A stretch of 64,000 nucleotides of DNA from Lachnospiraceae bacterium (lineage in GTDB: Bacteria > Bacillota > Clostridia > Lachnospirales > Lachnospiraceae), in assembly GCA_017412055.1 (NCBI GenBank), contig JAFQOW010000015.1, positions 77,602 through 141,601 on the forward strand, given 5' to 3'. The stretch's first letter is position 1, and every line of letters starts with the position of its first letter. The notes beneath the pieces were generated by a model. It saw only the letters and a program-made list of their open reading frames with translations. It ran no database searches and was not told the origin of the DNA. The position numbers and the translations under genes were made by a program. Of the stretch, positions 13,941-39,893 are shown piece after piece.

Positions 13941-14612
13941 ATGATAAGATTAAATAATGTTACAAAAATATATGAAACACAGGGTATTAAAACAAATGCG
14001 CTTAACGGAATTAGTCTCGAAATAGAAGATGGAGAAATGATTGCGGTAATGGGACCTAGTGGTTCTGGAAAGTCAACGCTACTTAATATTATAGGTTGTA
14101 TGGATACGCTCACAAGTGGTAAATATGAATATAATGAGTGTGAAGTTAGTGCATTAAAACAAGGTCAGTTGAATGCATTTAGAAAAAAACATGTAAGTTT
14201 TGTTTTTCAGAATTTTGCATTAATGAAAGATTACACGGTATATGAAAATGTAGAGTTACCACTTTTACCAAGAAATATATCTAAAAAGGAACGAAAGAAA
14301 ATTGTTAATGAAAAGCTAGAGCTTATGGGTATATCTGAACTTGCAAAAAAGTTTCCTACACAAATTTCAGGAGGACAGCAACAAAGGTGTGCAATAGCAA
14401 GAGCCTTGGTCGCAGAAAATGATATAATCTTGGCAGATGAACCTACAGGCGCATTGGATAGTAAAACTGGCGATGATATTATGGAGATATTTAAACAAGT
14501 AAATAAAATGGGTAAAACTGTTATTATAATAACTCACGACCAGAAAGTTGCGGAAAAGTGTAATAGAATAATTAAAATCGAAGATGGAAAGATTAAGATC
14601 AATGCAAAGTAA
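13941..14612 (+). CDS. ABC transporter ATP-binding protein (MacB/LolD-type)
   Basis: Walker A GPSGSGKST, Q-loop, signature LSGGQQQRCAIARAL, Walker B ILADEPTGALD, H-loop ITHD. Confidence 0.9.
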   Translation: MIRLNNVTKIYETQGIKTNALNGISLEIEDGEMIAVMGPSGSGKSTLLNIIGCMDTLTSGKYEYNECEVSALKQGQLNAFRKKHVSFVFQNFALMKDYTVYENVELPLLPRNISKKERKKIVNEKLELMGISELAKKFPTQISGGQQQRCAIARALVAENDIILADEPTGALDSKTGDDIMEIFKQVNKMGKTVIIITHDQKVAEKCNRIIKIEDGKIKINAK

Positions 14613-27899: not shown

Positions 27900-27916
27900 A
27901 CAATGAGTCAAATAGA

Positions 27917-27964
27917 AAAGCTAGGATAAGCTTGTGCTCGCACAAAAGCTTATCCTAGCTTTTC
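27917..27964 (+). terminator. long hairpin terminator
   Basis: AAAGCTAGGATAAGCTTGTGctcgCACAAAAGCTTATCCTAGCTTTTc, a stem of about 20 bp. Confidence 0.65.
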
Positions 27965-27987
27965 TATTTGACGAATGTCCTCCATGA

Positions 27988-28124
27988 GTAACGAAGAGCG
28001 AAGCTCGAAGTTACGAATGGAGTCAACTGCGAAGCAGTTGGATTACACCATATGGTAGTAACGAAGAGCGAAGCTCGAAGTTACAAATGGAGGCAACTGC
28101 AAAGCAGTTGGTTTATACCATATG
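27988..28124 (+). repeat. two tandem 67-bp direct repeats (about 90% identical), each with an internal hairpin CAACTGCgaaGCAGTTG
   Basis: Copy 1 at 27988-28054 and copy 2 at 28058-28124. A related ~55-bp segment lies at 7543-7600. Confidence 0.8.
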
Positions 28125-28281: not shown

Positions 28282-30717
28282 ATGTCAATGGCGTGTAAAA
28301 CATGTGGTGGTACAGTAATTCGTGAAGGTAATTATTATGTATGTGAATATTGCAGTAATAAATGGGAAATTGATAGCGGAAATGATGTACATGCAGTTGA
28401 TCGTGCAAATGCATGGTCTGCTCTTCGTGATGGTGATTTTGAAAAAGCATCTGAACTTTTTGAAAATATTATTATTAAAGAAGAAAATAATTATGAAGCA
28501 TATTGGGGACGTGCGCTTGCATTTGCTGGAATAGTATATGTTACAGATATGAATGAAAATAAAAAGGTTCCTACTTGTAACAATATCACAGAAGAATCGT
28601 TTGCTAATAATAAAGATGTGCAGAAAGCAATTTCGCTTGCGCCTGTAGATATTGCTGAAGGATATAAGCAACAAGTTGGATATATTGAAAAGGTTCGTAT
28701 TGAATGGTTGGAAAAAGCCAGTAAAGAACCTGCATATGATGTATTTATTAGTTTTAAGGATAGTGATCGTGAGAATGGAATTGAACGAACACAAGATAGT
28801 GTAGATGCACAAGATCTTTATAATGCACTTGTTGATGAGGGTTATAAGGTATTCTTTAGTAGAATTAGTCTTCGTGATAAAATTTCCGAGCAGTATGAGC
28901 CTTATATTTATAATGCAATTAAAACTGCCAAAGTTATGATTGTATTTGGTGAAAAACCAGAATATTTTAGTTCTGCGTGGATTAAGAATGAGTGGAATCG
29001 TTATAAGAATAGAATTGAAAAAGGTGAAAAACATAAGAACTCTCTTGTTGTAGTCTATAAGAATATGGATCCGGGAGAGCTTCCTATAGTTCTTAAATCA
29101 CGCCAGTGCTTGAATGCAGGGGATATGACGTTTCTTTCTGATTTGAATCGTCATATTAAACGTGTTGTAGATGAATCGAAAAAGTATGTTCAACTTGAAA
29201 GAATAGAGATTACAGGTGGTCAGATTGCAAAGAAGGCAACTACCCTTAATATAAATTCTTTAGAAACTAGAGAAGTTGGTCAAGGGGCAATTGCAGAAAC
29301 TGATATTACAGAACAAGAGTCAATAAAGTTGAGTTATGTGTATTTATCAACGGGACAATGGAATGAAGCAAATGCACTTCTAGAAGATGTATTATTTAAT
29401 AATCCGACTTGTGCGGAGGCAATATGGTGTAAATTAATGGTAAAACATAAAAATTCTGAGGATTCAGATTTTGTAAAAAAGGTGAATGTATTAAGTAACG
29501 ATGATTTTATAATGATAGAAAAAGTATTAAATTGCGCTTCTAAAGAGTTCGCAGAGAAAATACTTGAGTTATTGTATAAATCTGAGGAGTATGTTACTGA
29601 TGGAGTTTATAAAAAAGTATTAGAAGTAATTTTACCATTTAAAATAAATAAACGTCAAAATAGAATAAAGGAGGCATTCTGTGGAGTTATAAATAATAGC
29701 AAATATGATAGCTTTGATTTATTATTAAATACGTTAGAGTCAGATGATGTTGAACAATACATAAAATATAATTATGACTATGCAATGAAGACCGCATCTG
29801 TAATTGAGAAAAGAGCATGTTTGAATAATATTATAAGGGTTGATGAAGGGAATTTATCGGCATTACGTTTGATTGTTAAAATAGATTTAGAATTTTCTAA
29901 TACTTTAGATGAAATGATAAAAAGTATTGAACATTTACTTAAATATGCTTCAGATACAGATAAGGAAATAGAAGAGTGCATAAATTGGTTAACTAATAAG
30001 ATAAATAGAGTTATACATTGTTTAATTGCTAAAAAAATGTTGTGTTATTATAAAAAAGATATTTCGCAACTTAAGGAACAGCTTATAATCCTAAGTTATA
30101 AGATGATTGAGAAAAAAATGTTTGCTGAAGTAGAATATTTCTTGAATTTAATTCTTTCATTTGATGCTAATAATGCTGAGGTATATTGGGCAATTTGTCT
30201 TATGAAGCTTGAAGCGACAAATGAAGAAAATATTGTAAACAAGAAAAGATTGTTAAAAGATGTAGCTGAATTTAATAGATATTTAGTATTAGTTAGTGAT
30301 GATAGAAAGAAAAAGTGTATATATATATCAAAAGAGCAAATAGAGAAACAAGAAAGAGTAAAACAACAACAATTAAATAAAATAAAAGAAGAAATACAAA
30401 CTAAAAAACAAATAAATATGCAAATGAATATAGAAATGGAAACTATTAAGCATAAAAAGTATGGTAGTAGATTTTTAATGTATCTATATGTTTTTATTAT
30501 TGTAGTAGGGATTGGGTTGAGTTGCTTAGCTTTTTCGGAAACAGAGTGTAAATCTTTTGGTTATCCAGGTTTAGCTATAATAACTATTGGCTCTTGTGGA
30601 ATATGGAGTGAATATAAAAAAACCAAGGAACAAAAAGAAAAGATAAATGAGATTCAAACAAGGATTTTAGAGGTGGAAAGAGAAATTGAGGAATTAAATA
30701 CGAAACTGACTAATTAA
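28282..30717 (+). CDS. zinc-ribbon + TIR-domain protein with a long helical/TPR-like region and a C-terminal transmembrane anchor
   Basis: N-terminus CKTCGG...CEYCSN. TIR-like block YDVFISFKDSD...LVDEGYKVFFSRISLRDK...KTAKVMIVFGEKPEYFSSAWIKNEWNRY at about nt 28735-29092. Repeated EAYWG/EAIWC/EVYWA helical motifs. Hydrophobic FLMYLYVFIIVVGIGLSCLAF near the C-terminus. GGAGG SD. Confidence 0.75.
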   Translation: MSMACKTCGGTVIREGNYYVCEYCSNKWEIDSGNDVHAVDRANAWSALRDGDFEKASELFENIIIKEENNYEAYWGRALAFAGIVYVTDMNENKKVPTCNNITEESFANNKDVQKAISLAPVDIAEGYKQQVGYIEKVRIEWLEKASKEPAYDVFISFKDSDRENGIERTQDSVDAQDLYNALVDEGYKVFFSRISLRDKISEQYEPYIYNAIKTAKVMIVFGEKPEYFSSAWIKNEWNRYKNRIEKGEKHKNSLVVVYKNMDPGELPIVLKSRQCLNAGDMTFLSDLNRHIKRVVDESKKYVQLERIEITGGQIAKKATTLNINSLETREVGQGAIAETDITEQESIKLSYVYLSTGQWNEANALLEDVLFNNPTCAEAIWCKLMVKHKNSEDSDFVKKVNVLSNDDFIMIEKVLNCASKEFAEKILELLYKSEEYVTDGVYKKVLEVILPFKINKRQNRIKEAFCGVINNSKYDSFDLLLNTLESDDVEQYIKYNYDYAMKTASVIEKRACLNNIIRVDEGNLSALRLIVKIDLEFSNTLDEMIKSIEHLLKYASDTDKEIEECINWLTNKINRVIHCLIAKKMLCYYKKDISQLKEQLIILSYKMIEKKMFAEVEYFLNLILSFDANNAEVYWAICLMKLEATNEENIVNKKRLLKDVAEFNRYLVLVSDDRKKKCIYISKEQIEKQERVKQQQLNKIKEEIQTKKQINMQMNIEMETIKHKKYGSRFLMYLYVFIIVVGIGLSCLAFSETECKSFGYPGLAIITIGSCGIWSEYKKTKEQKEKINEIQTRILEVEREIEELNTKLTN

Positions 30718-30731
30718 CTTGTAACGTGGGA

Positions 30732-30762
30732 AAGATGGTTAGCGATAGCCATCTTTTTAGTT
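30732..30762 (+). terminator. rho-independent terminator after the first TIR gene
   Basis: AGATGGttagcgatagCCATCTTTTTAG. Confidence 0.55.
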
Positions 30763-30814
30763 TGAATTGATAAGAAAATAGTTTGATTGTTATAATTGTC
30801 GTAAATTGTTGAAA

Positions 30815-30850
30815 ATACATTGTATATATGTTAGAATACAATTGTATTCT
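30815..30850 (+). promoter_or_regulatory. tandem palindromic operator-like sites (ATACA-N1-2-TGTAT x2) upstream of the RHH gene
   Basis: AATACATTGTAT at 30814-30825. Perfect 18-bp palindrome AGAATACAATTGTATTCT at 30833-30850. Centres about 21 bp apart. Confidence 0.55.
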
Positions 30851-30912
30851 TTGATGCCATGGTAGGCGTATATTATTATGTGAATATTAAGTAATTTGAT
30901 AGGAGTTGTTAT

Positions 30913-31104
30913 ATGGACGAAGAAAAGAAATTAGTCATTTTACCACTAAAATATAGTGGTGAGACAACGGTAATATCTATGCGAATGCCGAAAGATATGT
31001 TGGCAGATATAGATAAAATAGCTGAAAAAACAGGAAGAACGCGTAATGAAATACTGATGTTGAGTATGGAATTTGCTATAGAACACATAACTACGAAAGA
31101 ATAA
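30913..31104 (+). CDS. ribbon-helix-helix (CopG/Arc-type) DNA-binding protein
   Basis: TVISMRMPKDMLADIDKIAEKTGRTRNEILMLSMEFAIEH fits a beta-strand-helix-helix pattern. 63 aa. Confidence 0.65.
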   Translation: MDEEKKLVILPLKYSGETTVISMRMPKDMLADIDKIAEKTGRTRNEILMLSMEFAIEHITTKE

Positions 31105-31118
31105 GGAGGATTTAGGTT

Positions 31119-32882
31119 ATGGCTAAATTTGCGATTGCATGCCCTGTATGTGGAAAATATGCGGAGGCTAAAACAGGTTTTTTTGCGAGAAAGAAAATTG
31201 ATTGTTCATGTGGAAATGTAATTAATGTTAAGCTGGATAAGCTTGCGTCAAGAGAGTGTCCGCATTGTGGTAATCAAGTTGCATATGATCAGAGTCAAGG
31301 TGAACATGCATTGTGTCCAGTGTGTCATCAAGGCATAAATACTATGGCATTGCAGCAGAAGATAGAAGAGTTTTCATGTTCTCAATGTGGAGTAAGATTG
31401 ATAACCTCTAAAAGTGCGGCAACATATACATGTCCAGTATGTGATTGTGTTAATGATATTCAGGAACGTCTTGTGTCTGAAAATATTAAGAAAGATGGTC
31501 TTGCTAGTATTATTAAGTATGAGGGAAATAACGATACGTTTATATGGAAACATCCAATTGAAGATTTTAATTATGGTTCACAGCTTATTGTACATGAGAG
31601 CCAGGAAGCAATATTTTTCAAGGATGGACAGGCATTAGATATATTTGGACCTGGTAGATATACTCTTGAGACGCAGCAATTACCACTTATAGAGAAAGCT
31701 TATAAGTTGCCAACAGATACAGAAGGTACATTTCATTCGGAAGTTTACTTCATTAACAAGACAGTACAAATGGCAGTTAAATGGGGGACAGCTGAGAAAG
31801 TAAGATTCATAGATCCGCTTACAGGTGTTCCATTGGAACTTGGTGTGTCAGGTGAAATGAATATTCAGGTGTGTAATTCAAAGAAATTATTGGTAAAGCT
31901 TGTAGGTACAATGAGTGGATTATCTTGGGATGAAGAAGCAGAAATGACTAAGTCATTGAAATCGTCTTTTAGACCAATGATAGCAAATGCGGTGAAGACT
32001 AATCTACCATCTGTAATTAAAAATGAAGCAATTGATCTTCTTGAAATTGATGAAAAATTAGATATTATTTCAGAATGTCTTAAGGAAAAGGTGCAAGCAG
32101 GATTTGAAGAATATGGTTTGACTGTGCCGCAGTTTTATGTAACTACTGTAGTTCTTCCAGAAGATGATCCTAATTTTAGGAGAATTCGTGAATTACATAC
32201 AATAACACTTCAGACAAGAATGTTACAAGCTGAAGCTACTATAAAGACAGCACAGGCTCAAAGTGAAACTATGTATAGAACTGCTCAGGAGCAGAGCAAG
32301 GCGGCTATTGAAGTAGCACAACGAGAAGCAGAGTTACAGAGGCAGATAACAGAAACAGAAATTGCAAAAAGAGAGGCTGAAAGAAAAATTATTGCTGCAC
32401 AAGCTGAAGCACAAGCACAGAGAATGGCTGGTTTGACTGAAGCTGAAATTATGCAGGCAAAGGGGTATTCTCAAAAGGATGTACTTCAGGCAGATGTGCA
32501 GAAAGCATATGCAGAAGGTATTGGTAATATGGGACCATCTATAAGTGCAGGTGGAGGAAGTAATATAGTTGGAGATATGCTTGGACTTGGGGTTGGAATG
32601 GCAGCAGCAAATGCGGTTGCACCACAGATAGGTAATATGATACAAGGCTTTACTAATCCTATGAATCAGCCACAGATACAGCCACAGATGCAACCACAGA
32701 TGACAGTTGGAGGTTCATGGGATTGTAGTTGTGGACAGAAAGGAATAGTGGGTAATTTCTGTAGTAACTGCGGAGCAAAGAAGCCACAACCTGCGATGCC
32801 TGAAATGTGGAATTGTACATGTGGACAGGTAGGTATAACAGGAAATTTCTGTAGTAATTGTGGTAAGAAGAGAGGTGAATAG
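31119..32882 (+). CDS. SPFH/band-7-like protein (COG4260-like) with three N-terminal and two C-terminal zinc ribbons and a coiled-coil
   Basis: N-terminal CxxC pairs x6. Central block WKHPIEDFNYGSQLIVHESQEAIFFKDGQALDIFGPGRYTL resembles the SPFH fold. E/A/Q-rich coiled coil. C-terminus CSCGQKGIVGNFCSNCG...CTCGQVGITGNFCSNCG. AAGGAGG SD. Confidence 0.55.
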   Translation: MAKFAIACPVCGKYAEAKTGFFARKKIDCSCGNVINVKLDKLASRECPHCGNQVAYDQSQGEHALCPVCHQGINTMALQQKIEEFSCSQCGVRLITSKSAATYTCPVCDCVNDIQERLVSENIKKDGLASIIKYEGNNDTFIWKHPIEDFNYGSQLIVHESQEAIFFKDGQALDIFGPGRYTLETQQLPLIEKAYKLPTDTEGTFHSEVYFINKTVQMAVKWGTAEKVRFIDPLTGVPLELGVSGEMNIQVCNSKKLLVKLVGTMSGLSWDEEAEMTKSLKSSFRPMIANAVKTNLPSVIKNEAIDLLEIDEKLDIISECLKEKVQAGFEEYGLTVPQFYVTTVVLPEDDPNFRRIRELHTITLQTRMLQAEATIKTAQAQSETMYRTAQEQSKAAIEVAQREAELQRQITETEIAKREAERKIIAAQAEAQAQRMAGLTEAEIMQAKGYSQKDVLQADVQKAYAEGIGNMGPSISAGGGSNIVGDMLGLGVGMAAANAVAPQIGNMIQGFTNPMNQPQIQPQMQPQMTVGGSWDCSCGQKGIVGNFCSNCGAKKPQPAMPEMWNCTCGQVGITGNFCSNCGKKRGE

Positions 32883-32885
32883 TCT

Positions 32886-33572
32886 ATGCATAAAAACAAA
32901 GTAAGAGGATGTATAACATTAGCAGTAATAGCAATTGTATTAAGTGTAATAGCGTTTGTTGCACCATTTTTAATGAATGCTACATTTTGGATAGCATATT
33001 TGTTTTCAGTTATAGCTATAGCATTTCAGATATATATATTTAAGATATCTTTTTCAGAAACAGAAGATGTAAAGAGTAAATTTTATGGTTTTCCTATCGC
33101 TCAGATAGGCGTAATATATCTTGTGGCGCAACTTGTAATAAGTATAGTGGAAATGATTCTTGCTACATTGATTCCAAGCTGGGTTGCAGTTGTGATTAAC
33201 ATAATTGTAACAGCGGCAGCGGTTCTTGGTTGCATTGCCGCAGATACTGTGAGAGACGAGATAGTAAAGCAGGATGATAAATTAAAAAAGAATGTCACAA
33301 ATATGAGAAGCATGCAGTTATTGTCGGCATCTATCGCAGGACAATGTACAAGTGAAATAAAATGTGAATTAGAGAAATTAGCAGAAGAGTTCAAGTATAG
33401 TGATATAGTGTCATCAGAGGCAACTGTTGAATTGGAAAATGAGATAAAACAACAATTAGATGAACTTCAAAGTTCAGTAATAGAAGGAGATATTGAATCA
33501 GCGAAGGTTTTGTGCGCTGGAATTCATGCAAAACTTAACGAGCGTAACAGATTGTGCGCACTAAATAAATAG
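32886..33572 (+). CDS. integral membrane protein (about 4 TM) with a C-terminal coiled-coil
   Basis: Hydrophobic helices, then ELEKLAEEFKYS...LQSSVIEGDIESAK. Lies 4 nt after the previous stop. Confidence 0.5.
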   Translation: MHKNKVRGCITLAVIAIVLSVIAFVAPFLMNATFWIAYLFSVIAIAFQIYIFKISFSETEDVKSKFYGFPIAQIGVIYLVAQLVISIVEMILATLIPSWVAVVINIIVTAAAVLGCIAADTVRDEIVKQDDKLKKNVTNMRSMQLLSASIAGQCTSEIKCELEKLAEEFKYSDIVSSEATVELENEIKQQLDELQSSVIEGDIESAKVLCAGIHAKLNERNRLCALNK

Positions 33573-33599
33573 ATATAAGTAGCTTAGGAGGAATATACA

Positions 33600-36014
33600 A
33601 TGGCAGTAATAAAATGTAAAATGTGTGGTGGTCAACTTAAAATTATTGAAAATTCAAGTGTTTGTGAATGTGAATACTGTGGTACAAAACAGACAATACC
33701 AACAGTAAAGGATGAAAATATACAGTCTTTATTTAATCGTGCCAATCATCTTCGTATGAAGGCAGAGTTTGATAAGGCTTCAGAAATATATGAAAAGATA
33801 ATATCAACTAATGATAAAGAAGCAGAAGCATACTGGGGACTTATATTATGTAAATATGGCATAGAATATGTAGAAGATCCAACAACTTACAAGCGTATTC
33901 CAACTTGTCACAGAGCATCTTATGAAGCTGTCGTTGTAGATGAAGATTATAAATTAGCACTTCAATATGCTGATATGTTTCAGAAGGAAATATATGAAAG
34001 AGAAGCAAAAGCAATTGATGATATTCAAAAAGGTATCGTGCAGATAGCGCAGAAGGAAGAACCTTATGATGTGTTCATATGTTATAAAGAGACTGACGAA
34101 GATGGTAAACGTACACAGGATAGCGTAATAGCTAATGATATTTATTATCAGTTAACACAGGAAGGATATAAGGTATTTTATGCGGCTATAACTCTTGAGG
34201 GCAAGTTAGGACAGGAGTATGAACCATACATATTTTCAGCGCTTAATTCTGCAAAAGTTATGTTGACAATAGGAACAAAAACAGAATATTTTAATGCAGT
34301 GTGGGTAAAAAATGAGTGGAGTCGATTCCTTAAAATATTGAAAAATGATCGTTCTCGTATGCTTATTCCTTGTTATAGAGATATGGATGCATATGATTTA
34401 CCAGAAGAATTTGCACATCTTCAGGCTCAAGATATGAGTAAAATAGGATTTATTAATGATCTTGTAAGGGGAATAAAGAAGATAGTAGGTTTGGAGGAAA
34501 AAGCAGTATCTGAATCACCAGTTGTACAACAGACAGTAGTTGCAATGTCTGGTAATGTAGAAGCGTTGTTAAAAAGAGGAAATTTAGCACTTGAGGATAT
34601 GGAATGGGAAAGAGCAGATGGTTTCTTTGAGGAAGTGCTTAATCACGATGCAGAAAATGCATATGCTTATTTAGGAAAAATGTTGGCAGAGTTGAAGTTG
34701 TCAAGTGCTTCTAAAATATCAACAATTTCACATATTTCATTTACTGAAAATAAGGATTTTATTAAGGCGTTAAGATTTGCTGATGATAAATTGAAAGAAG
34801 AACTAAATGGTTATGTAAAAAAAAGAATGGAGGAAGAAGAAAAGAGAGTATTGAATGAAAAAAGGGTTATGGATGAAATAGAATGGCTTTTGAGTGAAAA
34901 AGAGACAAAAAAAGAAATAGATAGTTTAGTTGCGTGTGGTGATGATTATAGTATAGGCCTGAAAAAAGATGGGACAGTAGTGGCGACAGGAGATAATGAT
35001 AGTAGAAAACGTGAAGTAGAGACATGGCGAGATATAGTAGCGGTTGCGTTTGGTTTTCGTCATAGTATAGGCCTAAAAAAAGATGGGACAGTAGTGGCGA
35101 CAGGAGATAATAAGTATGGTCAATGCAAAATAGAGACATGGCGAGATATAGTAGCGGTTGCGTGTGGTGATGATCATAGTATAGGCCTGAAAAAAGATGG
35201 GACAGTAGTAGCGACAGGAGATAATGGAGAAAGTCAATGCGAAGTAGAGATATGGCGAGATATAGTAGCGGTTGCGTGTGGTGGTTATCATAGTATAGGT
35301 TTAAAAAAAGATGGGACAGTAATGGCAACAGGAGAACATGTGTATGGTCAATGCAAAGTAGAGACATGGCGAGATGTAGTAGCGGTTGCGTGTGGTAATG
35401 CTCATAGTATAGGCCTAAAAAAAGATGGGACAGTAGTGGCAACAGGATATAATTATAATAGTGAATGTGAAGTAGAGACATGGCGAGATATAGCAGCGGT
35501 TGCGTGTGGTCGTAAACATAGTATAGGCCTAAAAAAAAGTGGTACAGTAGTGGCGACAGGAGATAATAAGTATGGTCAATGCAAAATAGAGACATGGCGA
35601 GATATAGTAGCGGTTGCGTGTGGTGATGATCATAGTATAGGCTTAAAAAAAGATGGGACAGTAGTGGCTACAGGAAATAATAAGTATGGTCAATGCAAAG
35701 TAGAGACATGGAAATTATTTGATAATGTTTATAGTTACTTAGAAGAAAAGGATATAGAATGTAAAGCAGAAGAGGAAAAACGTAAAGTAGAAGAGGAAAA
35801 ACGTAAAGCAGAAGAGGAAAAACGTAAAGCAGAAGAGGAAAAACGTAAAGCGGAAGAGGAAAAACGTAAAGCAGAAGAGGAAAAACGTAAAGTAGAAGAG
35901 GAAAAACAAAAATTTGAATGGCGACAATTAGGATGTTGTCAGCATTGTGGTGGCATGCTTAAAGGCTTTTTTATAAAAAAATGTGTATCATGTTGTAGAG
36001 AAAAAGATTATTAA
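33600..36014 (+). CDS. zinc-ribbon + TIR-domain protein fused to an 8-repeat RCC1-like beta-propeller, an E/K-rich single-alpha-helix repeat and a C-terminal zinc ribbon
   Basis: N-terminus CKMCGG...CECEYCG plus EAYWGLIL motif (paralog of 28282). TIR block YDVFICYKETDEDGKRTQDSV...GYKVFYAAITLEGK...SAKVMLTIGTKTEYFNAVWVKNEWSRF at about nt 34065-34410. Eight copies of VACGDDHSIGLKKDGTVVATGDNxxGQCKxETWRDIVA. (EEKRKAEE)x7. CCQHCGG...CVSCC. Confidence 0.8.
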   Translation: MAVIKCKMCGGQLKIIENSSVCECEYCGTKQTIPTVKDENIQSLFNRANHLRMKAEFDKASEIYEKIISTNDKEAEAYWGLILCKYGIEYVEDPTTYKRIPTCHRASYEAVVVDEDYKLALQYADMFQKEIYEREAKAIDDIQKGIVQIAQKEEPYDVFICYKETDEDGKRTQDSVIANDIYYQLTQEGYKVFYAAITLEGKLGQEYEPYIFSALNSAKVMLTIGTKTEYFNAVWVKNEWSRFLKILKNDRSRMLIPCYRDMDAYDLPEEFAHLQAQDMSKIGFINDLVRGIKKIVGLEEKAVSESPVVQQTVVAMSGNVEALLKRGNLALEDMEWERADGFFEEVLNHDAENAYAYLGKMLAELKLSSASKISTISHISFTENKDFIKALRFADDKLKEELNGYVKKRMEEEEKRVLNEKRVMDEIEWLLSEKETKKEIDSLVACGDDYSIGLKKDGTVVATGDNDSRKREVETWRDIVAVAFGFRHSIGLKKDGTVVATGDNKYGQCKIETWRDIVAVACGDDHSIGLKKDGTVVATGDNGESQCEVEIWRDIVAVACGGYHSIGLKKDGTVMATGEHVYGQCKVETWRDVVAVACGNAHSIGLKKDGTVVATGYNYNSECEVETWRDIAAVACGRKHSIGLKKSGTVVATGDNKYGQCKIETWRDIVAVACGDDHSIGLKKDGTVVATGNNKYGQCKVETWKLFDNVYSYLEEKDIECKAEEEKRKVEEEKRKAEEEKRKAEEEKRKAEEEKRKAEEEKRKVEEEKQKFEWRQLGCCQHCGGMLKGFFIKKCVSCCREKDY
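34920..35700 (+). repeat. eight tandem ~153-nt repeats, near-identical at nucleotide level, encoding the RCC1-like blades
   Basis: Repeating ggcctgaaaaaagatgggacagtagtggcgacaggagataat...gagacatggcgagatatagtagcggttgcgtgtggt units. Source of the spurious minus-strand ORF 34867-35595. Confidence 0.9.
35760..35925 (+). repeat. seven tandem 24-nt repeats (gaagaggaaaaacgtaaagcagaa) encoding EEKRKAEE
   Basis: Perfect or near-perfect copies. Source of the spurious minus-strand ORF 35739-35927. Confidence 0.9.
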
Positions 36015-36036
36015 ATTTAGGAAGGGATTTTTACAT

Positions 36037-36972
36037 ATGAGTCAAGTAAAAGAACAAAAGTATCTACAAGTGTTATTGTTAGGGAATGGTATTAATCAAT
36101 TAAATGGCGGTAAGTCATGGAATGAATTTTTGCGAGATATAACCACAAAACAAGAGATTTTAGATGGTATTATCCAGTTGGAAAAACTGCAGTGTCCAGA
36201 ACCATTAAAAGCAATTTTGGTAACAGAAGATCATATTGATGTTGCTATGAAAAATTACTGTAAAAAGATTGCTTTTGAGAAGCAAGCACCACAAATATGT
36301 GAAATATATAAAACTATATTAACTATGGGATTTGACGATATCCTTACTACAAATTACACATATGAATTAGAAGTGGCAGCGGCTACACCAAAAGAAATAA
36401 ATGAATCTAAAGTAAGAGCAATGGCGCGTAATACATTAGGACGCAGGGTTGAGAATAAGTATCTTTTGCATACATATAATTGCTTGAAAGTTCTTGAGTG
36501 TGAAAATAGAGTATGGCATATTCATGGAGAAGCGAGAAAACCAGATAGTACAGTTTTAGGACATTATTACTATGGGAATTTACTTTTTAAAATAAAAAAT
36601 TTTTTGGAAAGAAGAAAATATGCATATATTACAGAAAGTGAATCGTGGATTGATTCGTTCATAATGGGTGATGTTTATATTCTTGGATTTGGATTTGCTT
36701 TTTCTGAAATGGATTTATGGTGGCTTTTAAATCGTAAAGCAAGAGAAAAAAGTGATGTGGGCAAGGTGTATTTTTATGAAGCAAAGCCAGATGGTTTTAA
36801 TGAGAAGCAAGAAATATTACGTATGATGAAATGTGCATCAGATGGAGAACCACTGGTGGAAATCATTGATTGTGGATTTGATGAAAAAGAATTGAAAACA
36901 TTTAATGATAAATATGAAGCTTTTTATAAAGCTGCGATTGAAGATATTTATACTAAAATGAATAAAGGATAG
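36037..36972 (+). CDS. SIR2_2-family (sirtuin-like, predicted NAD+-consuming) protein
   Basis: SIR2_2 motif series LLLGNGINQ (GAG-type Rossmann), DDILTTNYT (TTNYD motif), WHIHGEA (HG motif), YILGFGFAFSEMD (GYS..D motif). Start chosen at MSQVKEQ (36037), 23 nt after the TIR-RCC1 stop. The tracked ORF starts at 35983 inside the upstream gene. Confidence 0.75.
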   Translation: MSQVKEQKYLQVLLLGNGINQLNGGKSWNEFLRDITTKQEILDGIIQLEKLQCPEPLKAILVTEDHIDVAMKNYCKKIAFEKQAPQICEIYKTILTMGFDDILTTNYTYELEVAAATPKEINESKVRAMARNTLGRRVENKYLLHTYNCLKVLECENRVWHIHGEARKPDSTVLGHYYYGNLLFKIKNFLERRKYAYITESESWIDSFIMGDVYILGFGFAFSEMDLWWLLNRKAREKSDVGKVYFYEAKPDGFNEKQEILRMMKCASDGEPLVEIIDCGFDEKELKTFNDKYEAFYKAAIEDIYTKMNKG

Positions 36973-37051: not shown

Positions 37052-37300
37052 GTGTTTTAAACATAATTTAAAAACTGAAATTAAAACGTTGACGAGGACA
37101 GTAGATTAGCAAAAAGGAATCAAAGAGAGAAGCAGGTGGTGTGATTGCTTCATTCCCGGCTACATTGAAAACCACCTCTGAGTGACTCTAATAAAGTCCG
37201 GTGATTACGTTATAATCATAAGAGTGGTAGCTTTTTTGCTACAATTTGGGTGGAACCGCGATAATATCGTCCCTTGCAGATTTATATCTGTAGGGGATTT
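37052..37300 (+). ncRNA. T-box riboswitch leader (Thr specifier ACC) with terminator/antiterminator
   Basis: Promoter TTTACA-N16-TAAAAT at 37018-37045. AGAGA stem-I start. Specifier-like GAAAACCAC. T-box consensus AATTTGGGTGGAACCGCG at 37243-37260. Terminator CCCTTGCAGATttatATCTGTAGGGGATTTTT. Confidence 0.8.
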
Positions 37301-37378: not shown

Positions 37379-37879
37379 ATGGCTTTTGAACTAGCAAGAA
37401 TATCAAACGATGAACAACTTAATATTTTAGCAGGTGTTGCAAATGAAGTCTGGCATGAATTCTTTCCCTGTATTTTATCTGATGAGCAAATTGACTATAT
37501 GGTTGATAAGTTTCAATCTTACCCTGCCATGAAAAAACAGATGGAAGATGGTTATGAATATTATTTTATAAAGGATAATGATGAAATCTGTGGATATATG
37601 GGTATACATGAAGAAACAGAGGATAATAAAATGTTCCTTAGTAAGCTATATTTAAAGAAGGCACATAGAGGAAAAGGTTATGCTGGTCAAACTCTTAAAG
37701 AACTCTTTAAAATGAGTAGGGAGAGAGGGCTTAATATGGTATGGCTAACGGTTAATAAGCATAATGAACATACTATTGAAGTATACGAGCATATGGGCTT
37801 TGCAAAAGCTCGAACTCAGGTGGCTGATATTGGCAATGGCTTTGTAATGGATGATTACATTATGGAGAAGGTGCTTTAA
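37379..37879 (+). CDS. GNAT-family N-acetyltransferase
   Basis: Acetyl-CoA binding motif region (KAHRGKGYAGQTLKELF). 166 aa. AAAGGAG SD. Confidence 0.85.
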   Translation: MAFELARISNDEQLNILAGVANEVWHEFFPCILSDEQIDYMVDKFQSYPAMKKQMEDGYEYYFIKDNDEICGYMGIHEETEDNKMFLSKLYLKKAHRGKGYAGQTLKELFKMSRERGLNMVWLTVNKHNEHTIEVYEHMGFAKARTQVADIGNGFVMDDYIMEKVL

Positions 37880-37934: not shown

Positions 37935-39893
37935 ATGAAGATTACATTAAAAGACGGTTCAGTAAAAGAATACGCACAGGCAATGTCTGTTATAGATGTT
38001 GCAAATGACATTAGCGAAGGTTTGGGTAGAGCAGCTTGTGCTGGTGAGGTAAATGGAGAAGTTGTAGATTTAAGAACAGTTATAGAAGAGGACTGCAATT
38101 TAAGCATTCTTACATTTAATGATGAGGCAGGTAAGGCTGCATACAGACATACATGTTCACATGTATTGGCAGAGGCTGTTAAGAGACTTTATCCAGAAGC
38201 AAAGCTTGCGATTGGACCATCAATAGACACAGGATTTTATTATGATTTCGAGCATGCTCCATTTTCAAGAGAAGACCTTGATAAAATTGAGGCAGAGATG
38301 AAGAAGGTTATTAAGGAAAATGCTAAAATCGAAAGATTCACAATGCCAAGAGCAGAGGCTATTAAGTTTATGGAGGAGAAGGGCGAGCTATATAAGGTAG
38401 AGCTTATCCGTGATCTTCCAGAGGATGCGGTTATTTCATTCTATAGTCAGGGTGATTTCGTGGACCTTTGTGCAGGACCACACCTTATGAAGACAGGTGC
38501 TATTAAGGCATTTAAGCTTATTTCATCATCTGGTGCATACTGGAGAGGTAAGTCGGAGAATCAGATGCTTGCTAGAATCTACGGTACAGCATTTGCTAAG
38601 AAGGATGAGCTTAATGCATACTTAGAGCATCTTGAGGATATTAAGAAGAGAGACCATAATAAGCTTGGTAGAGAGATGGAAATCTTTACAACAGTAGATG
38701 TAATAGGACAAGGCCTTCCACTTCTTATGCCAAATGGTGTAATTATGCTTCAGGAGCTTCAAAGATGGATTGAGGACGAGGAGACAAAGAGAGGATATGT
38801 TAGAACAAAGACACCTCTTATGGCTAAGTCTGATTTATATAAGATTTCTGGACATTGGGATCACTATAAGGATGGTATGTTCGTTCTTGGTGATGAAGAG
38901 AAGGATGATGAAGTATTTGCCCTTCGTCCTATGACATGTCCATTCCAGTATTATGTATACAAGAATAGTCAGAAGAGCTACAGAGACCTTCCATTGAGAT
39001 ATGGTGAGACATCTACACTTTTCAGAAATGAAGATTCAGGTGAGATGCATGGTCTTACAAGAGTTCGTCAGTTTACAATTTCAGAGGGACACTTAATCGT
39101 TCGCCCAGACCAGATGGTTGAGGAGTTTAAGGGATGTCTCGCACTTGCTAAGTATTGCTTAGAGACACTTGGTGTTCAGAGCGATGTAACATATCATCTT
39201 TCTAAGTGGGACCCAGATAATAGAGCAAAGTATATCGGCGAGCCAGAGGTATGGGAAGAGACAGAGCAGCATATTAGAGATATCTTAAATGAGCTTGAAA
39301 TTCCATTTACAGAGGATGTAGGAGAGGCTGCATTCTATGGACCAAAGGTAGATATCAATGCTAAGAATGTATACGGCAAGGAAGATACAATGATTACAAT
39401 CCAGTGGGATCCATTACTTGCTGAACAGTTTGATATGTACTACATTGACCAGAATGGTGAGAAGGTTAGACCATACATTATCCATAGAACATCTATGGGA
39501 TGTTATGAGAGAACACTTGCTTGGCTTATCGAGCATTACGCAGGACTTTTCCCAACATGGTTATGTCCAGAACAGGTGAGAGTTCTTCCTATTTCGGAGA
39601 AGTATGCTGATTATGCTCACAAGGTAGAAGAAGAGCTTAAAGCAAACGGTATCCGTTGCTCAATGGATAACCGTTCCGAAAAGATTGGTTTCAAGATTAG
39701 AGATGCAAGACTTAAGAGAGTTCCATATATCCTTGTAGTAGGACAGAAGGAAGAGGAAGAAGGAAAGGTATCTGTAAGAAGCCGTTATCTTGGGGATGAA
39801 GGTCAGAAGGAGCTTTCTGTATTCATCGACGAAATCTGCAAGGAGATTCGTACAAAGGAAATCAGAGAGATTAAAGTAGAAGAAAACCAGTAG
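37935..39893 (+). CDS. thrS: threonine--tRNA ligase
   Basis: N-terminal TGS domain, editing domain, class II core (motif 2 FRNEDSGEMHGLTRVRQFT, motif 3) and anticodon-binding domain. Confidence 0.95.
   Translation: MKITLKDGSVKEYAQAMSVIDVANDISEGLGRAACAGEVNGEVVDLRTVIEEDCNLSILTFNDEAGKAAYRHTCSHVLAEAVKRLYPEAKLAIGPSIDTGFYYDFEHAPFSREDLDKIEAEMKKVIKENAKIERFTMPRAEAIKFMEEKGELYKVELIRDLPEDAVISFYSQGDFVDLCAGPHLMKTGAIKAFKLISSSGAYWRGKSENQMLARIYGTAFAKKDELNAYLEHLEDIKKRDHNKLGREMEIFTTVDVIGQGLPLLMPNGVIMLQELQRWIEDEETKRGYVRTKTPLMAKSDLYKISGHWDHYKDGMFVLGDEEKDDEVFALRPMTCPFQYYVYKNSQKSYRDLPLRYGETSTLFRNEDSGEMHGLTRVRQFTISEGHLIVRPDQMVEEFKGCLALAKYCLETLGVQSDVTYHLSKWDPDNRAKYIGEPEVWEETEQHIRDILNELEIPFTEDVGEAAFYGPKVDINAKNVYGKEDTMITIQWDPLLAEQFDMYYIDQNGEKVRPYIIHRTSMGCYERTLAWLIEHYAGLFPTWLCPEQVRVLPISEKYADYAHKVEEELKANGIRCSMDNRSEKIGFKIRDARLKRVPYILVVGQKEEEEGKVSVRSRYLGDEGQKELSVFIDEICKEIRTKEIREIKVEENQ

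Follow-up and report, generated by a model that had tools for sequence, protein, structure and literature searches.

What does a bacterial TIR protein sense, and to which partners does it report? TIR proteins have a central place in the immunity of bacteria, plants and animals, and the targets sensed by those of bacteria are mostly unknown. The question is raised in a concrete form by a stretch of 64,000 nucleotides from a Lachnospiraceae bacterium (assembly GCA_017412055.1, contig JAFQOW010000015.1, positions 77,602 to 141,601 of the forward strand), referred to here as the window, in which an intact open reading frame (ORF) at 33600..36014 on the plus strand encodes an 804-residue protein that joins a TIR domain to a beta-propeller. 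The protein is identical to NCBI entry MBQ2981458.1, 'MAG: TIR domain-containing protein [Lachnospiraceae bacterium]', and an exact-sequence look-up places it on seven contigs. The explanation that fits best, and that is credited here with a slight balance of probability, is that it is a cytoplasmic sensor fused to an enzyme that cleaves nicotinamide adenine dinucleotide (NAD), with a foreign protein, most likely of a phage, as its ligand, and that it either drains NAD+ or signals to partners encoded in the same gene cassette. Coordinates below are those of the window, and features lie on the plus strand unless marked otherwise.

The domains of the TIR-propeller protein follow one another in the order zinc ribbon, helical domain, TIR, TPR with a long helix, seven-blade propeller, charged single helix and C-terminal zinc ribbon, and the full-length AlphaFold2 model, built from 32 homologs, has a mean predicted local distance difference test score (pLDDT) of 86.7. 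A sequence-only reading of the window, made without database searches, had proposed a TIR domain fused to a propeller of the RCC1 superfamily, and Pfam bears this out: TIR_2 (PF13676) matches residues 158-281 (E 1.9e-11, 44.9 bits against a cut-off of 28), RCC1_2 matches seven stretches (E 2.3e-67), and the RCC1-like domain scores 151.5 bits against a cut-off of 150. The zinc ribbons that it had placed at both termini are likewise found there as Cys4 motifs. The N-terminal ribbon (residues 1-35, 33600..33704) is formed by C6, C9, C24 and C27 and folds into short beta-hairpins in the model; C9, C24 and C27 are invariant, and C6 nearly so, in alignments of 32 and 39 homologs. The C-terminal ribbon (C780, C783, C795 and C798, 35928..36011) is recognized by its sequence motif, C-Q-H/Y-C-G-G...K-K-C-x-x-C-G-K-x-K-D-Y, which recurs in 10 of 31 homologs. 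Behind the first ribbon lies a helical, TPR-like domain with a beta-hairpin (residues 36-152, 33705..34055; pLDDT 82-96), whose invariant columns include the motif YWGL.LC.YGIEYV.DP...PTCHR; no solved relative of residues 1-150 was found, and Foldseek gave weak TPR matches only.

The TIR domain itself (residues 155-297, 34062..34490) is supported by both Pfam TIR_2 and Foldseek. In a separate model of residues 1-316 (pLDDT 87.5), it takes the flavodoxin-like alpha/beta fold of solved TIR domains, and its best structural match is the TIR domain of AbTir, 7uxu_A (TM-score 0.77, root-mean-square deviation (rmsd) 3.3 A); behind it come MyD88, plant TIRs and the TIR-APAZ protein of SPARTA, the last with an rmsd of 2.2-2.7 A. 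Within it, Glu239 stands in the invariant motif WVKNEW and is unchanged in 39 of 39 aligned sequences. In a weak pairwise alignment it falls opposite the glutamate of 'WCLMEL' in the flax L6 TIR, which we take to be the catalytic glutamate of plant and SARM1 TIRs. Glu239 is thus a candidate catalytic residue, and the TIR protein is, as far as sequence can tell, probably NAD-cleaving. A disordered linker (residues 298-318, with pLDDT below 50 at residues 299-318) leads to TPR-like helices and a long helix (residues 319-441, 34554..34922) that join the TIR domain to the propeller. The helices are confident in the model from residue 320 to 441, homologs carry precomputed TPR Pfam matches, and paralogs have TPR matches at about residues 320-360.

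AbTir and SPARTA are the closest solved TIR folds, and the arrangement of a repeat-domain sensor with a TIR domain recalls plant TIR-LRR (leucine-rich repeat) receptors; the window protein differs in that it lacks an Argonaute, a nucleotide-binding switch domain and an LRR, and its TIR domain is at most 24% identical to any solved one. Compared with TIRs that are activated by assembly, activation of this kind is something that we infer for the window protein.

The propeller (residues 443-708, 34926..35723) is encoded by the longer of two tandem repeat arrays in the gene, both of which lie far outside what chance would produce. Tandem Repeats Finder (TRF) reports an array at 34929-35711 with a period of 114 nt, 6.9 copies, 85% matches and a score of 1142, and a register anchored on the motif SIGLKK resolves seven units at an exact spacing of 38 residues. 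The sequence-only reading had counted eight blades of about 153 nt; the true figures are seven and 114 nt. It had also called the repeats almost identical at the DNA level, which does not hold for the blades, at 76-92% identity (mean 84%; protein mean 73%; synonymous divergence 0.15-0.19), and does hold for a shorter array described below. The structure prediction that it had suggested as a check returned a confident, closed propeller, in which DSSP assigns 21 strands as seven sets of three at a pLDDT of about 95.

The fold is that of a protein-binding inhibitor. Foldseek places BLIP-II, chain 1jtd_B, first (E 1.7e-25, TM-score 0.79, rmsd 2.4 A), far ahead of UVR8, HERC2 and RCC1; the structural alignment has 34% identity over 255 columns and covers 255 of the 273 BLIP-II residues. 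BLIP-II is also the best genuine sequence match of the propeller in the PDB (E 1e-21). The BLIP-II of Streptomyces exfoliatus (1jtd, 3qhy; TM-score 0.79-0.80) likewise has seven three-stranded blades of some 38-40 residues. Blades of about 40 residues and three strands define the BLIP-II subtype, whereas those of RCC1 proper have 50-60 residues and four strands. As modelled, the domain is hence a closed propeller of the BLIP-II type with seven blades, rather than an RCC1 propeller with eight. Loops on one face of BLIP-II hold its protein target very tightly. BLIP-II itself is a secreted, stand-alone inhibitor of 28 kDa, whereas the propeller of the window lies inside a cytoplasmic TIR protein. 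Stand-alone seven-blade proteins of BLIP-II size, 291-308 residues long, without a TIR domain and 47-51% identical to the window propeller, are found in Paenibacillus (L025, L027, L028, L030, L031, L033, L034, L047 and L048). A search of a phage collection did not find the TIR-propeller protein, only RCC1-like propellers at 25-50% identity.

A different fold was suggested by the top PDB sequence match of the propeller region (34905-35735), the TAL effector 3ugm (E 1e-38). This match was rejected as an artefact of periodicity, because it sums alignments of 25-33 bits and sets 38-residue blades against 34-residue helical repeats, and because it contradicts Pfam, the model and Foldseek. Propeller blades and TAL repeats do share a loose pattern, VVA..N..G.Q..ET...V.C, and the match serves as a warning about summed scores on repeat proteins.

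The second, shorter array lies between the propeller and the C-terminal ribbon. TRF reports it at 35761-35907 with a period of 21 nt, 7.0 copies, 96% matches and a score of 273; the units encode the heptad EEKRKAE/V, four of them identical and three with one base change. The seven copies claimed by the earlier reading are thus correct, and its 24-nt unit, EEKRKAEE, is one codon too long. The array forms the core of a charged segment (residues 709-776, 35724..35927), delimited by TRF, composition and the model, in which 48 of 68 residues (71%) are E, K or R and a single Ala or Val per heptad is the sole apolar residue. As in ER/K helices, this composition reads as a rigid single alpha-helix rather than a coiled coil. 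The helix is continuous in the model from residue 710 to 776 (pLDDT 83-95), and the segment is most likely a stable, charged single alpha-helix that would space the propeller from the C-terminal ribbon. Both arrays also give rise to ORFs on the minus strand, one of 242 codons at 34867..35595 and others at 35073..35291 and 35739..35927; as that reading had supposed, these are spurious by-products of the repeats, because they lie inside the arrays of a gene with strong domain matches and their periodic translations share the period of the repeats.

How did the blades come to resemble one another? In the window protein, identity between blades averages 0.74, against 0.57 for the best same-position comparison with a non-allelic homolog, and blade DNA identity is 84%, against 53-71% in the relatives sampled. 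An ungapped blade comparison had made the window propeller appear the most repetitive of its family; it was superseded by a register-aware analysis in which its value is typical. Identity within the protein reaches about 0.70 or more in 29 of 42 seven-blade homologs, and in 22 of the 42 the blades are more alike among themselves than in the best same-position comparison with another protein. A 99-nt exact repeat joins 35088-35186 to 35544-35642, four blades apart, within an alignment whose remainder is about 81% identical; about 2e-7 such repeats would be expected by chance, and this one marks a recent exchange between blades. The recent expansion, or continuing exchange, that the sequence-only reading had proposed has therefore left visible signs. 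Blades 1, 3 and 5 resemble each other, as do blades 2, 4 and 6 (86-92% DNA identity, against 79-86% between odd and even; region 34926-35609), and this parity pattern suggests a two-blade amplification unit of 228 nt, which TRF did not report.

Such histories have precedent. Pereira and Lupas (PMC9218822) described the repeated amplification of propellers from single blades, with RCC1/BLIP-II as the third largest group (10%), documented blade-number variants among near-identical propeller proteins and proposed a link to innate immunity. Both the RCC1/BLIP-II group and the class of amplified propellers, to which the window propeller belongs, are thus already described. As in the amplified propellers of that work, including the cyanobacterial WRAP WD40 proteins of TIR/STAND operons, the blades are closer within the protein than to those of relatives; in contrast to them, the window propeller is fused directly to TIR, without a STAND ATPase, and its blades are moderately diverged (84% DNA identity) rather than near-identical.

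Divergence among the blades is not spread evenly. When variable columns were set from 287 blades of other proteins, a choice that avoids circularity, they comprised columns 6, 7, 14, 23, 25, 26, 32, 33 and 35. At these columns the window blades have a pN of 0.329 and a pS of 0.097, a contrast built on few synonymous sites and non-independent blade pairs, and at the other columns dN/dS is 0.4-0.55; random sets of nine columns reach the observed pN in 0.15% of draws. The variable loop residues of the window protein fall at blade positions 6-7 and 23-30. These hypervariable positions would lie on one face of the propeller, because the strand topology puts the first part of the loop behind strand 3 on the side of the turn that links strands 1 and 2. 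Within the explanation favoured here, in which belief outweighs doubt by a little, the DNA repeats of the propeller would reflect amplification from one or two blades, with exchange continuing, the framework being held under purifying selection and the loops diversifying.

The gene also varies in repeat number between almost identical strains, or appears to. Besides the window form, with seven blades and seven heptads (804 residues, P0121, the seven contigs already mentioned), there are forms of 769 residues with seven blades and two heptads (P0001, two contigs), 693 residues with five blades and two heptads (P0003, two contigs) and 652 residues with three blades and seven heptads (P0004, one contig). 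The variant contigs are 99.4-99.98% identical to the window and represent the same locus, and one of them (L003) is free of single-nucleotide differences over 11.3 kb upstream. Each variant is a loss of whole units with breakpoints at internal exact repeats, of 99 nt for the four-blade loss, 34 nt for the two-blade loss and 42 nt for the five-heptad loss, the 99-nt and 42-nt repeats being the longest of the blade and heptad arrays, respectively. The comparison of strains that the sequence-only reading had asked for thus does yield variants in relatives almost without single-nucleotide differences, all of them from short-read metagenome assemblies (MEGAHIT k141 contigs and SPAdes-style scaffolds), and its warning of misassembly was apt.

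Whether these forms exist in cells or are collapses made by short-read assemblers, with the real gene fixed at seven blades and seven or more heptads, is a matter on which the evidence is evenly poised. That every variant count comes from such assemblies, that the losses are exact, and that the 804-residue form is on seven contigs and the variants on two, two and one would be expected of collapse, as would the recovery of the 804- and 652-residue forms from different samples by a single assembly pipeline, and the length of the heptad array (147 nt), which is about that of a typical short read. Blade numbers point the same way: three blades, which cannot close a propeller, occur in no other member of the family, being confined to the allelic variant, and five occur in the allelic variant and in two of 117 unrelated homologs. 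True recombination, however, would use the same exact repeats, and the position of the breakpoints does not discriminate; two of the variants were each found on two contigs, the 99-nt repeat is itself a genuine past exchange of blades in the lineage, blade-number variants among nearly identical propellers are documented (PMC9218822), and the k of 141 is longer than both the 34-nt and the 99-nt repeat, which makes a collapse of blades at the final MEGAHIT stage unexpected. Under either account a frameshift switch is impossible, since the repeat units are multiples of three nucleotides, and annotators should note that the repeat counts of such genes vary between short-read assemblies of practically identical strains. 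Two of the assemblies with altered repeat counts (L001 and L002, from different studies) also carry a G>T change at position 31935 in a neighbouring gene for an SPFH protein, which turns Glu273 into a stop and leaves ORFs of 272 and 312 codons; this may be a naturally occurring allele that has cost the cassette its function.

The further proposal of that reading, that repeat number tunes specificity, is probably wrong. Among 120 homologs the blade count has its mode at seven (43 proteins), and 14 blades occur in eight proteins, several of them as seven plus a linker plus seven; because the count peaks at seven, tuning by number is unlikely, and the variation that looks selected lies in the loops. 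Loop sequence is accordingly put forward, from the alignments, as more likely than blade number to set specificity.

The propeller is one of several ends that an otherwise constant module can carry. The first 300 residues match 4135 clusters (50% identity) at E <= 1e-30, and in the best 150 of these the match begins at or within a few residues of the N-terminus, except for two at residues 16 and 19. Module-bearing proteins range from 405 to 1591 residues; paralogs share the first 300-400 residues or so and end in a propeller, in DUF6273 or in domains without assignment, and non-allelic homologs are at most 57% identical. DUF6273 is known as a C-type-lectin-like domain that is hypermutated by diversity-generating retroelements (DGRs) in phage receptor-binding proteins (PMC10743442). 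Cassette paralogs ending in DUF6273 occur at L052 (12245-14716) and also at L050, L008 and L010, and at L052 a gene for the DGR accessory protein bAvd directly follows the paralog. It is a possibility that some of the sensors are DGR targets.

In which company is the gene found? In the window it belongs to an island (28282-36972, about 8.7 kb) that has cobW-like genes on its left and a T-box/GNAT/thrS unit on its right. The island opens with a second TIR paralog of 811 residues (28282..30717; Pfam TIR_2 E 4e-9; phmmer against the TIR-propeller protein E 1.9e-59), which has the same zinc ribbon-helical-TIR-TPR module, with the candidate catalytic glutamate in a WIKNEW motif, and a different, helical C-terminal region that closes with a pair of predicted membrane helices. 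With a terminator-like hairpin at 30729-30758, the gene appears to be transcribed as a unit of its own. The cassette proper begins with a ribbon-helix-helix (RHH) protein of 63 residues (30913..31104; Pfam RHH_1 E 8e-5), whose gene also opens the cassette in other loci and has the best promoter-like site (30767-30796) just upstream; the protein is probably a regulator. There follow an SPFH protein of 587 residues (31119..32882; Pfam Band_7_1 E 1.4e-34) with several N- and C-terminal zinc ribbons, which is the most conserved partner, its homologs being 74-80% identical across species, and a protein of 228 residues (32886..33572) with four predicted transmembrane (4-TM) segments, recognized as hydrophobic stretches of the translation, and a helical C-terminal half, for which no family match was found in Pfam or NCBIfam. 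The 4-TM gene adjoins the SPFH gene in 48 of 54 loci. Gaps among the last five genes of the island are 3-27 nt and a consensus scan found no terminator-like site between 30913 and 36972, which, since the promoter and terminator scans were not enriched over shuffled sequence, lends weak support only to a single transcription unit.

The last gene, downstream of the TIR-propeller gene, encodes an AbiH-family, SIR2-like protein of 311 residues (36037..36972), which starts at the ATG at 36037 behind the ribosome-binding site AGGAAGGG. Pfam AbiH gives 32.5 bits against a cut-off of 30.9, and SIR2_2 an E of 2.5e-4; the motifs GNG, TTNY (N106) and HxHG (H163) are invariant in nine sequences. The best PDB match of its profile is the SIR2 domain of Thoeris ThsA, 6lhx (E 0.001), whose TTNYD and MHGD, which hold its catalytic residues, align with these motifs. 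In all seven further loci for which gene order is listed, the AbiH-like gene lies directly 3' of, or slightly overlaps, a TIR-module or propeller gene. AbiH is a validated abortive-infection gene of lactococci and has been likened to sirtuins (PMC13064643).

The association of TIR and SPFH genes is seen from both sides and is complete from that of SPFH. Among 37 genome loci found through the TIR protein, which contain up to five TIR paralogs each, the only recurrent neighbours are the SPFH gene (10 loci) and the 4-TM gene (8 loci). In the reverse test, which is the decisive one, an SPFH profile yielded 80 metagenome loci, 22 of them with at least 3 kb upstream and at least 4 kb downstream; TIR-module genes are present in all 22 (mean 1.9, up to 5), the propeller type in 11 and the AbiH-like gene in six. 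These 22 loci span at least 13 distinct SPFH clusters, and the pattern was repeated in four of four separately sampled contexts. The genes thus form a conserved cassette of an RHH protein, a zinc-ribbon SPFH protein, a 4-TM protein, one to five TIR paralogs with varied C-termini and sometimes an AbiH-like protein.

In some other genomes the cassette adjoins tRNA genes, resolvase and transposase genes and an LlaJI restriction system (sites at L094 5384-5457; L097 9996-10068; L050 220-828; L052 625-2925 and 17804-19001), or PBECR4. This suggests that it moves as part of genomic islands; in the window it lies between housekeeping genes. A Clostridiales-1 RNA (27904-28047; Rfam 61 bits against a gathering score of 48), an orphan small RNA, sits exactly between a cobW-like gene and the first TIR gene, where the island begins on its left. 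It was considered as an element of the cassette and set aside, not having been found beside eight other cassettes. Downstream of the island are a T-box leader (37080-37277, 109 bits) with a terminator hairpin at 37269-37298, and a GNAT acetyltransferase gene (37379-37879) that stands between the leader and thrS (37935-39893). Far upstream, 791-2818 encodes a protein of 675 residues that combines sigma-70 region 4 with BspA-type leucine-rich repeats, and a relative of this sigma-factor gene lies near another cassette, at the start of L051.

From these parts a chain of events can be proposed. A foreign protein, most likely from a phage, would bind the variable face of the propeller, and binding would gather TIR domains through the region of TPR and long helix; the assembled TIRs would form an active NAD+-cleaving site around Glu239, and the enzyme would then drain NAD+ or make a signal derived from ADP-ribose. 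Such a signal would act on the AbiH-like SIR2 protein encoded directly downstream, on the membrane-associated SPFH and 4-TM pair, or on both. What the analysis demonstrates is the architecture and fold, the conservation of Glu239, the way the blades vary and the linkage of the genes; ligand binding, activation, chemistry and the action against phages are inferred from these. A role of the TIR-propeller protein as a putative anti-phage sensor is plausible because a fixed enzyme module is combined with exchangeable binding domains, because the paralogs are multi-copy and fast-evolving, because an AbiH-family gene recurs inside the cassette, and because some loci have mobile-element, restriction or tRNA neighbours.

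Of described systems, Thoeris, an anti-phage system in which the TIR protein ThsB is paired with an effector such as the SIR2-SLOG protein ThsA, is the one that the cassette would work most like, to judge from its proteins, yet the models that define Thoeris do not recognize it. The likeness consists in a TIR protein with a conserved candidate catalytic glutamate, in several divergent TIR paralogs beside conserved non-TIR partners, and in a SIR2-like protein, with GxG, TTNY and HG motifs matching those of ThsA, that is adjacent in about a quarter of cassette loci. The differences are that the cassette TIR is not matched by ThsB-type models (none in PADLOC, far below cut-off in NCBIfam); that the AbiH-like protein has only a SIR2-like domain and no SLOG, Macro or other known signal-binding domain; that the TIR proteins are large (about 600-1500 residues), with zinc ribbons, TPRs and C-terminal binding domains of their own; and that the constant partners are the SPFH and 4-TM proteins. 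PADLOC-DB v2.0.0 has no entry for the cassette, and none of the encoded proteins scores above a cut-off in NCBIfam release 20.0. The words SPFH, propeller, zinc and related terms do not occur in the main text of a 2025 survey of 29 putative Thoeris types, and full-text searches of a library of papers turned up no description of the TIR-propeller family or of the cassette.

Several observations weigh against a defence sensor. The TIR-propeller protein has no match in PADLOC-DB v2.0.0 (2023) at E <= 0.01, and its NCBIfam score for Thoeris type III ThcB4 is just 18.1 bits against a cut-off of 220. When the 43 genes of the window were all scanned with PADLOC, the matches were generic only, those to mad3, AbiLi and PtuA all falling on one ABC ATPase (13941-14609); the remainder of the window is housekeeping, and PADLOC models matched by 144 neighbours of distant homologs were generic kinase, ABC-ATPase and helicase models only. 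The assignment of Glu239 goes back to pairwise alignments that are weak (E 0.05-0.3), the placement of the variable positions on one face was deduced from strand topology and not from coordinates, and the loop contrast is subject to the small number of sites noted above. No domain with known affinity for a TIR-made signal is present in the SPFH and 4-TM partners, and by their domain content these resemble YdjG, YdjH and YdjI of Bacillus subtilis, with which a non-immune role would fit equally well (PMC9239133).

That last resemblance leads to the most serious alternative, namely that the cassette is a module of membrane stress or envelope homeostasis in which the SPFH and 4-TM proteins would act as the phage-shock-associated YdjG/H/I complex does and the TIR proteins would be NAD-linked regulators or adaptors drawn to them. 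The B. subtilis PspA-YdjGHI system likewise combines a zinc ribbon, a membrane protein and a cytoplasmic band-7/SPFH protein (PMC9239133, PMC8581546), with YdjG contributing zinc ribbon and membrane segments, YdjH membrane segments and YdjI the band-7 domain; the strong conservation of the SPFH protein across species is more housekeeping-like, the second TIR paralog is itself predicted to be membrane-anchored, cobW-like genes and thrS flank the window cassette, and distant loci show no clear enrichment for defence genes. The parallel is one of domain content, and it is imperfect, because the zinc ribbons of the cassette are fused to SPFH, a PspA gene is lacking and TIR genes are always present. 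Multi-copy TIR paralogs that evolve fast (at most 57% identity) and have hypervariable, exchangeable ends are the pattern of a conflict system and not of homeostasis; the SPFH gene appears dispensable in the two assemblies with the stop allele, and the recurrence of AbiH and the mobile, restriction or tRNA neighbours of some cassettes fit homeostasis poorly. We regard this alternative as unlikely, though well short of negligible.

Less probable again is that the TIR-propeller protein is a self-contained, NAD-depleting abortive-infection protein and its neighbours independent genes of an island. Many bacterial TIR proteins are indeed stand-alone NAD-depleting effectors (bioRxiv 10.64898/2025.12.03.692087), AbiH by itself gives abortive infection in Lactococcus (PMC13064643), and more distant Lachnospiraceae relatives (36-41% identity) have their TIR genes in tandem and lack an SPFH gene within 10 kb; independence is hard to reconcile, however, with complete linkage on the SPFH side (22 of 22), with intergenic gaps of 3-27 nt uninterrupted by a terminator-like site, and with the fixed position of the AbiH-like gene directly after a TIR gene. 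An exported or host-directed protein, be it a BLIP-II-like binder or inhibitor or a TIR mimic that disturbs the Toll-like receptor signalling of a host, as some pathogens do, would suit a gut or rumen Lachnospiraceae, and both the secreted inhibitor that is the closest solved fold (PMC9218822) and the propeller-only proteins of Paenibacillus might be cited for it. But no signal peptide is visible, Cys4 zinc ribbons at both ends fit a reducing cytoplasm, the candidate catalytic glutamate is invariant, and the genes in tight linkage with it encode cytoplasmic and membrane partners, not a secretion system, so that this account is very improbable.

A cytoplasmic sensor fused to an NAD-cleaving enzyme therefore remains the preferred reading of the TIR-propeller protein. 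A wider claim, that gut and rumen Clostridia possess in this cassette a new and very abundant type of TIR-based immunity, in which exchangeable sensors report to a shared membrane effector of SPFH and 4-TM proteins, can be offered only tentatively, the balance leaning somewhat towards doubt. Each TIR sensor of such a system would recognize a different phage protein, by way of BLIP-II-type propellers rebuilt from single blades, perhaps DGR-hypermutated DUF6273 domains, or membrane-anchored forms. The family is large (more than 4000 clusters) and concentrated in gut and rumen Clostridia, whose defence systems have been little mapped and are difficult to test. Its sensor is a readable one, being a small propeller of a fold known for tight protein binding and with its variable positions mapped, and the strict link to SPFH and 4-TM proteins in a cassette of five or six genes suggests an output at the membrane, of a kind not yet described for TIR systems. 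If the wider claim is true, these Clostridia would possess a Thoeris-like system with built-in, fast-evolving receptors.

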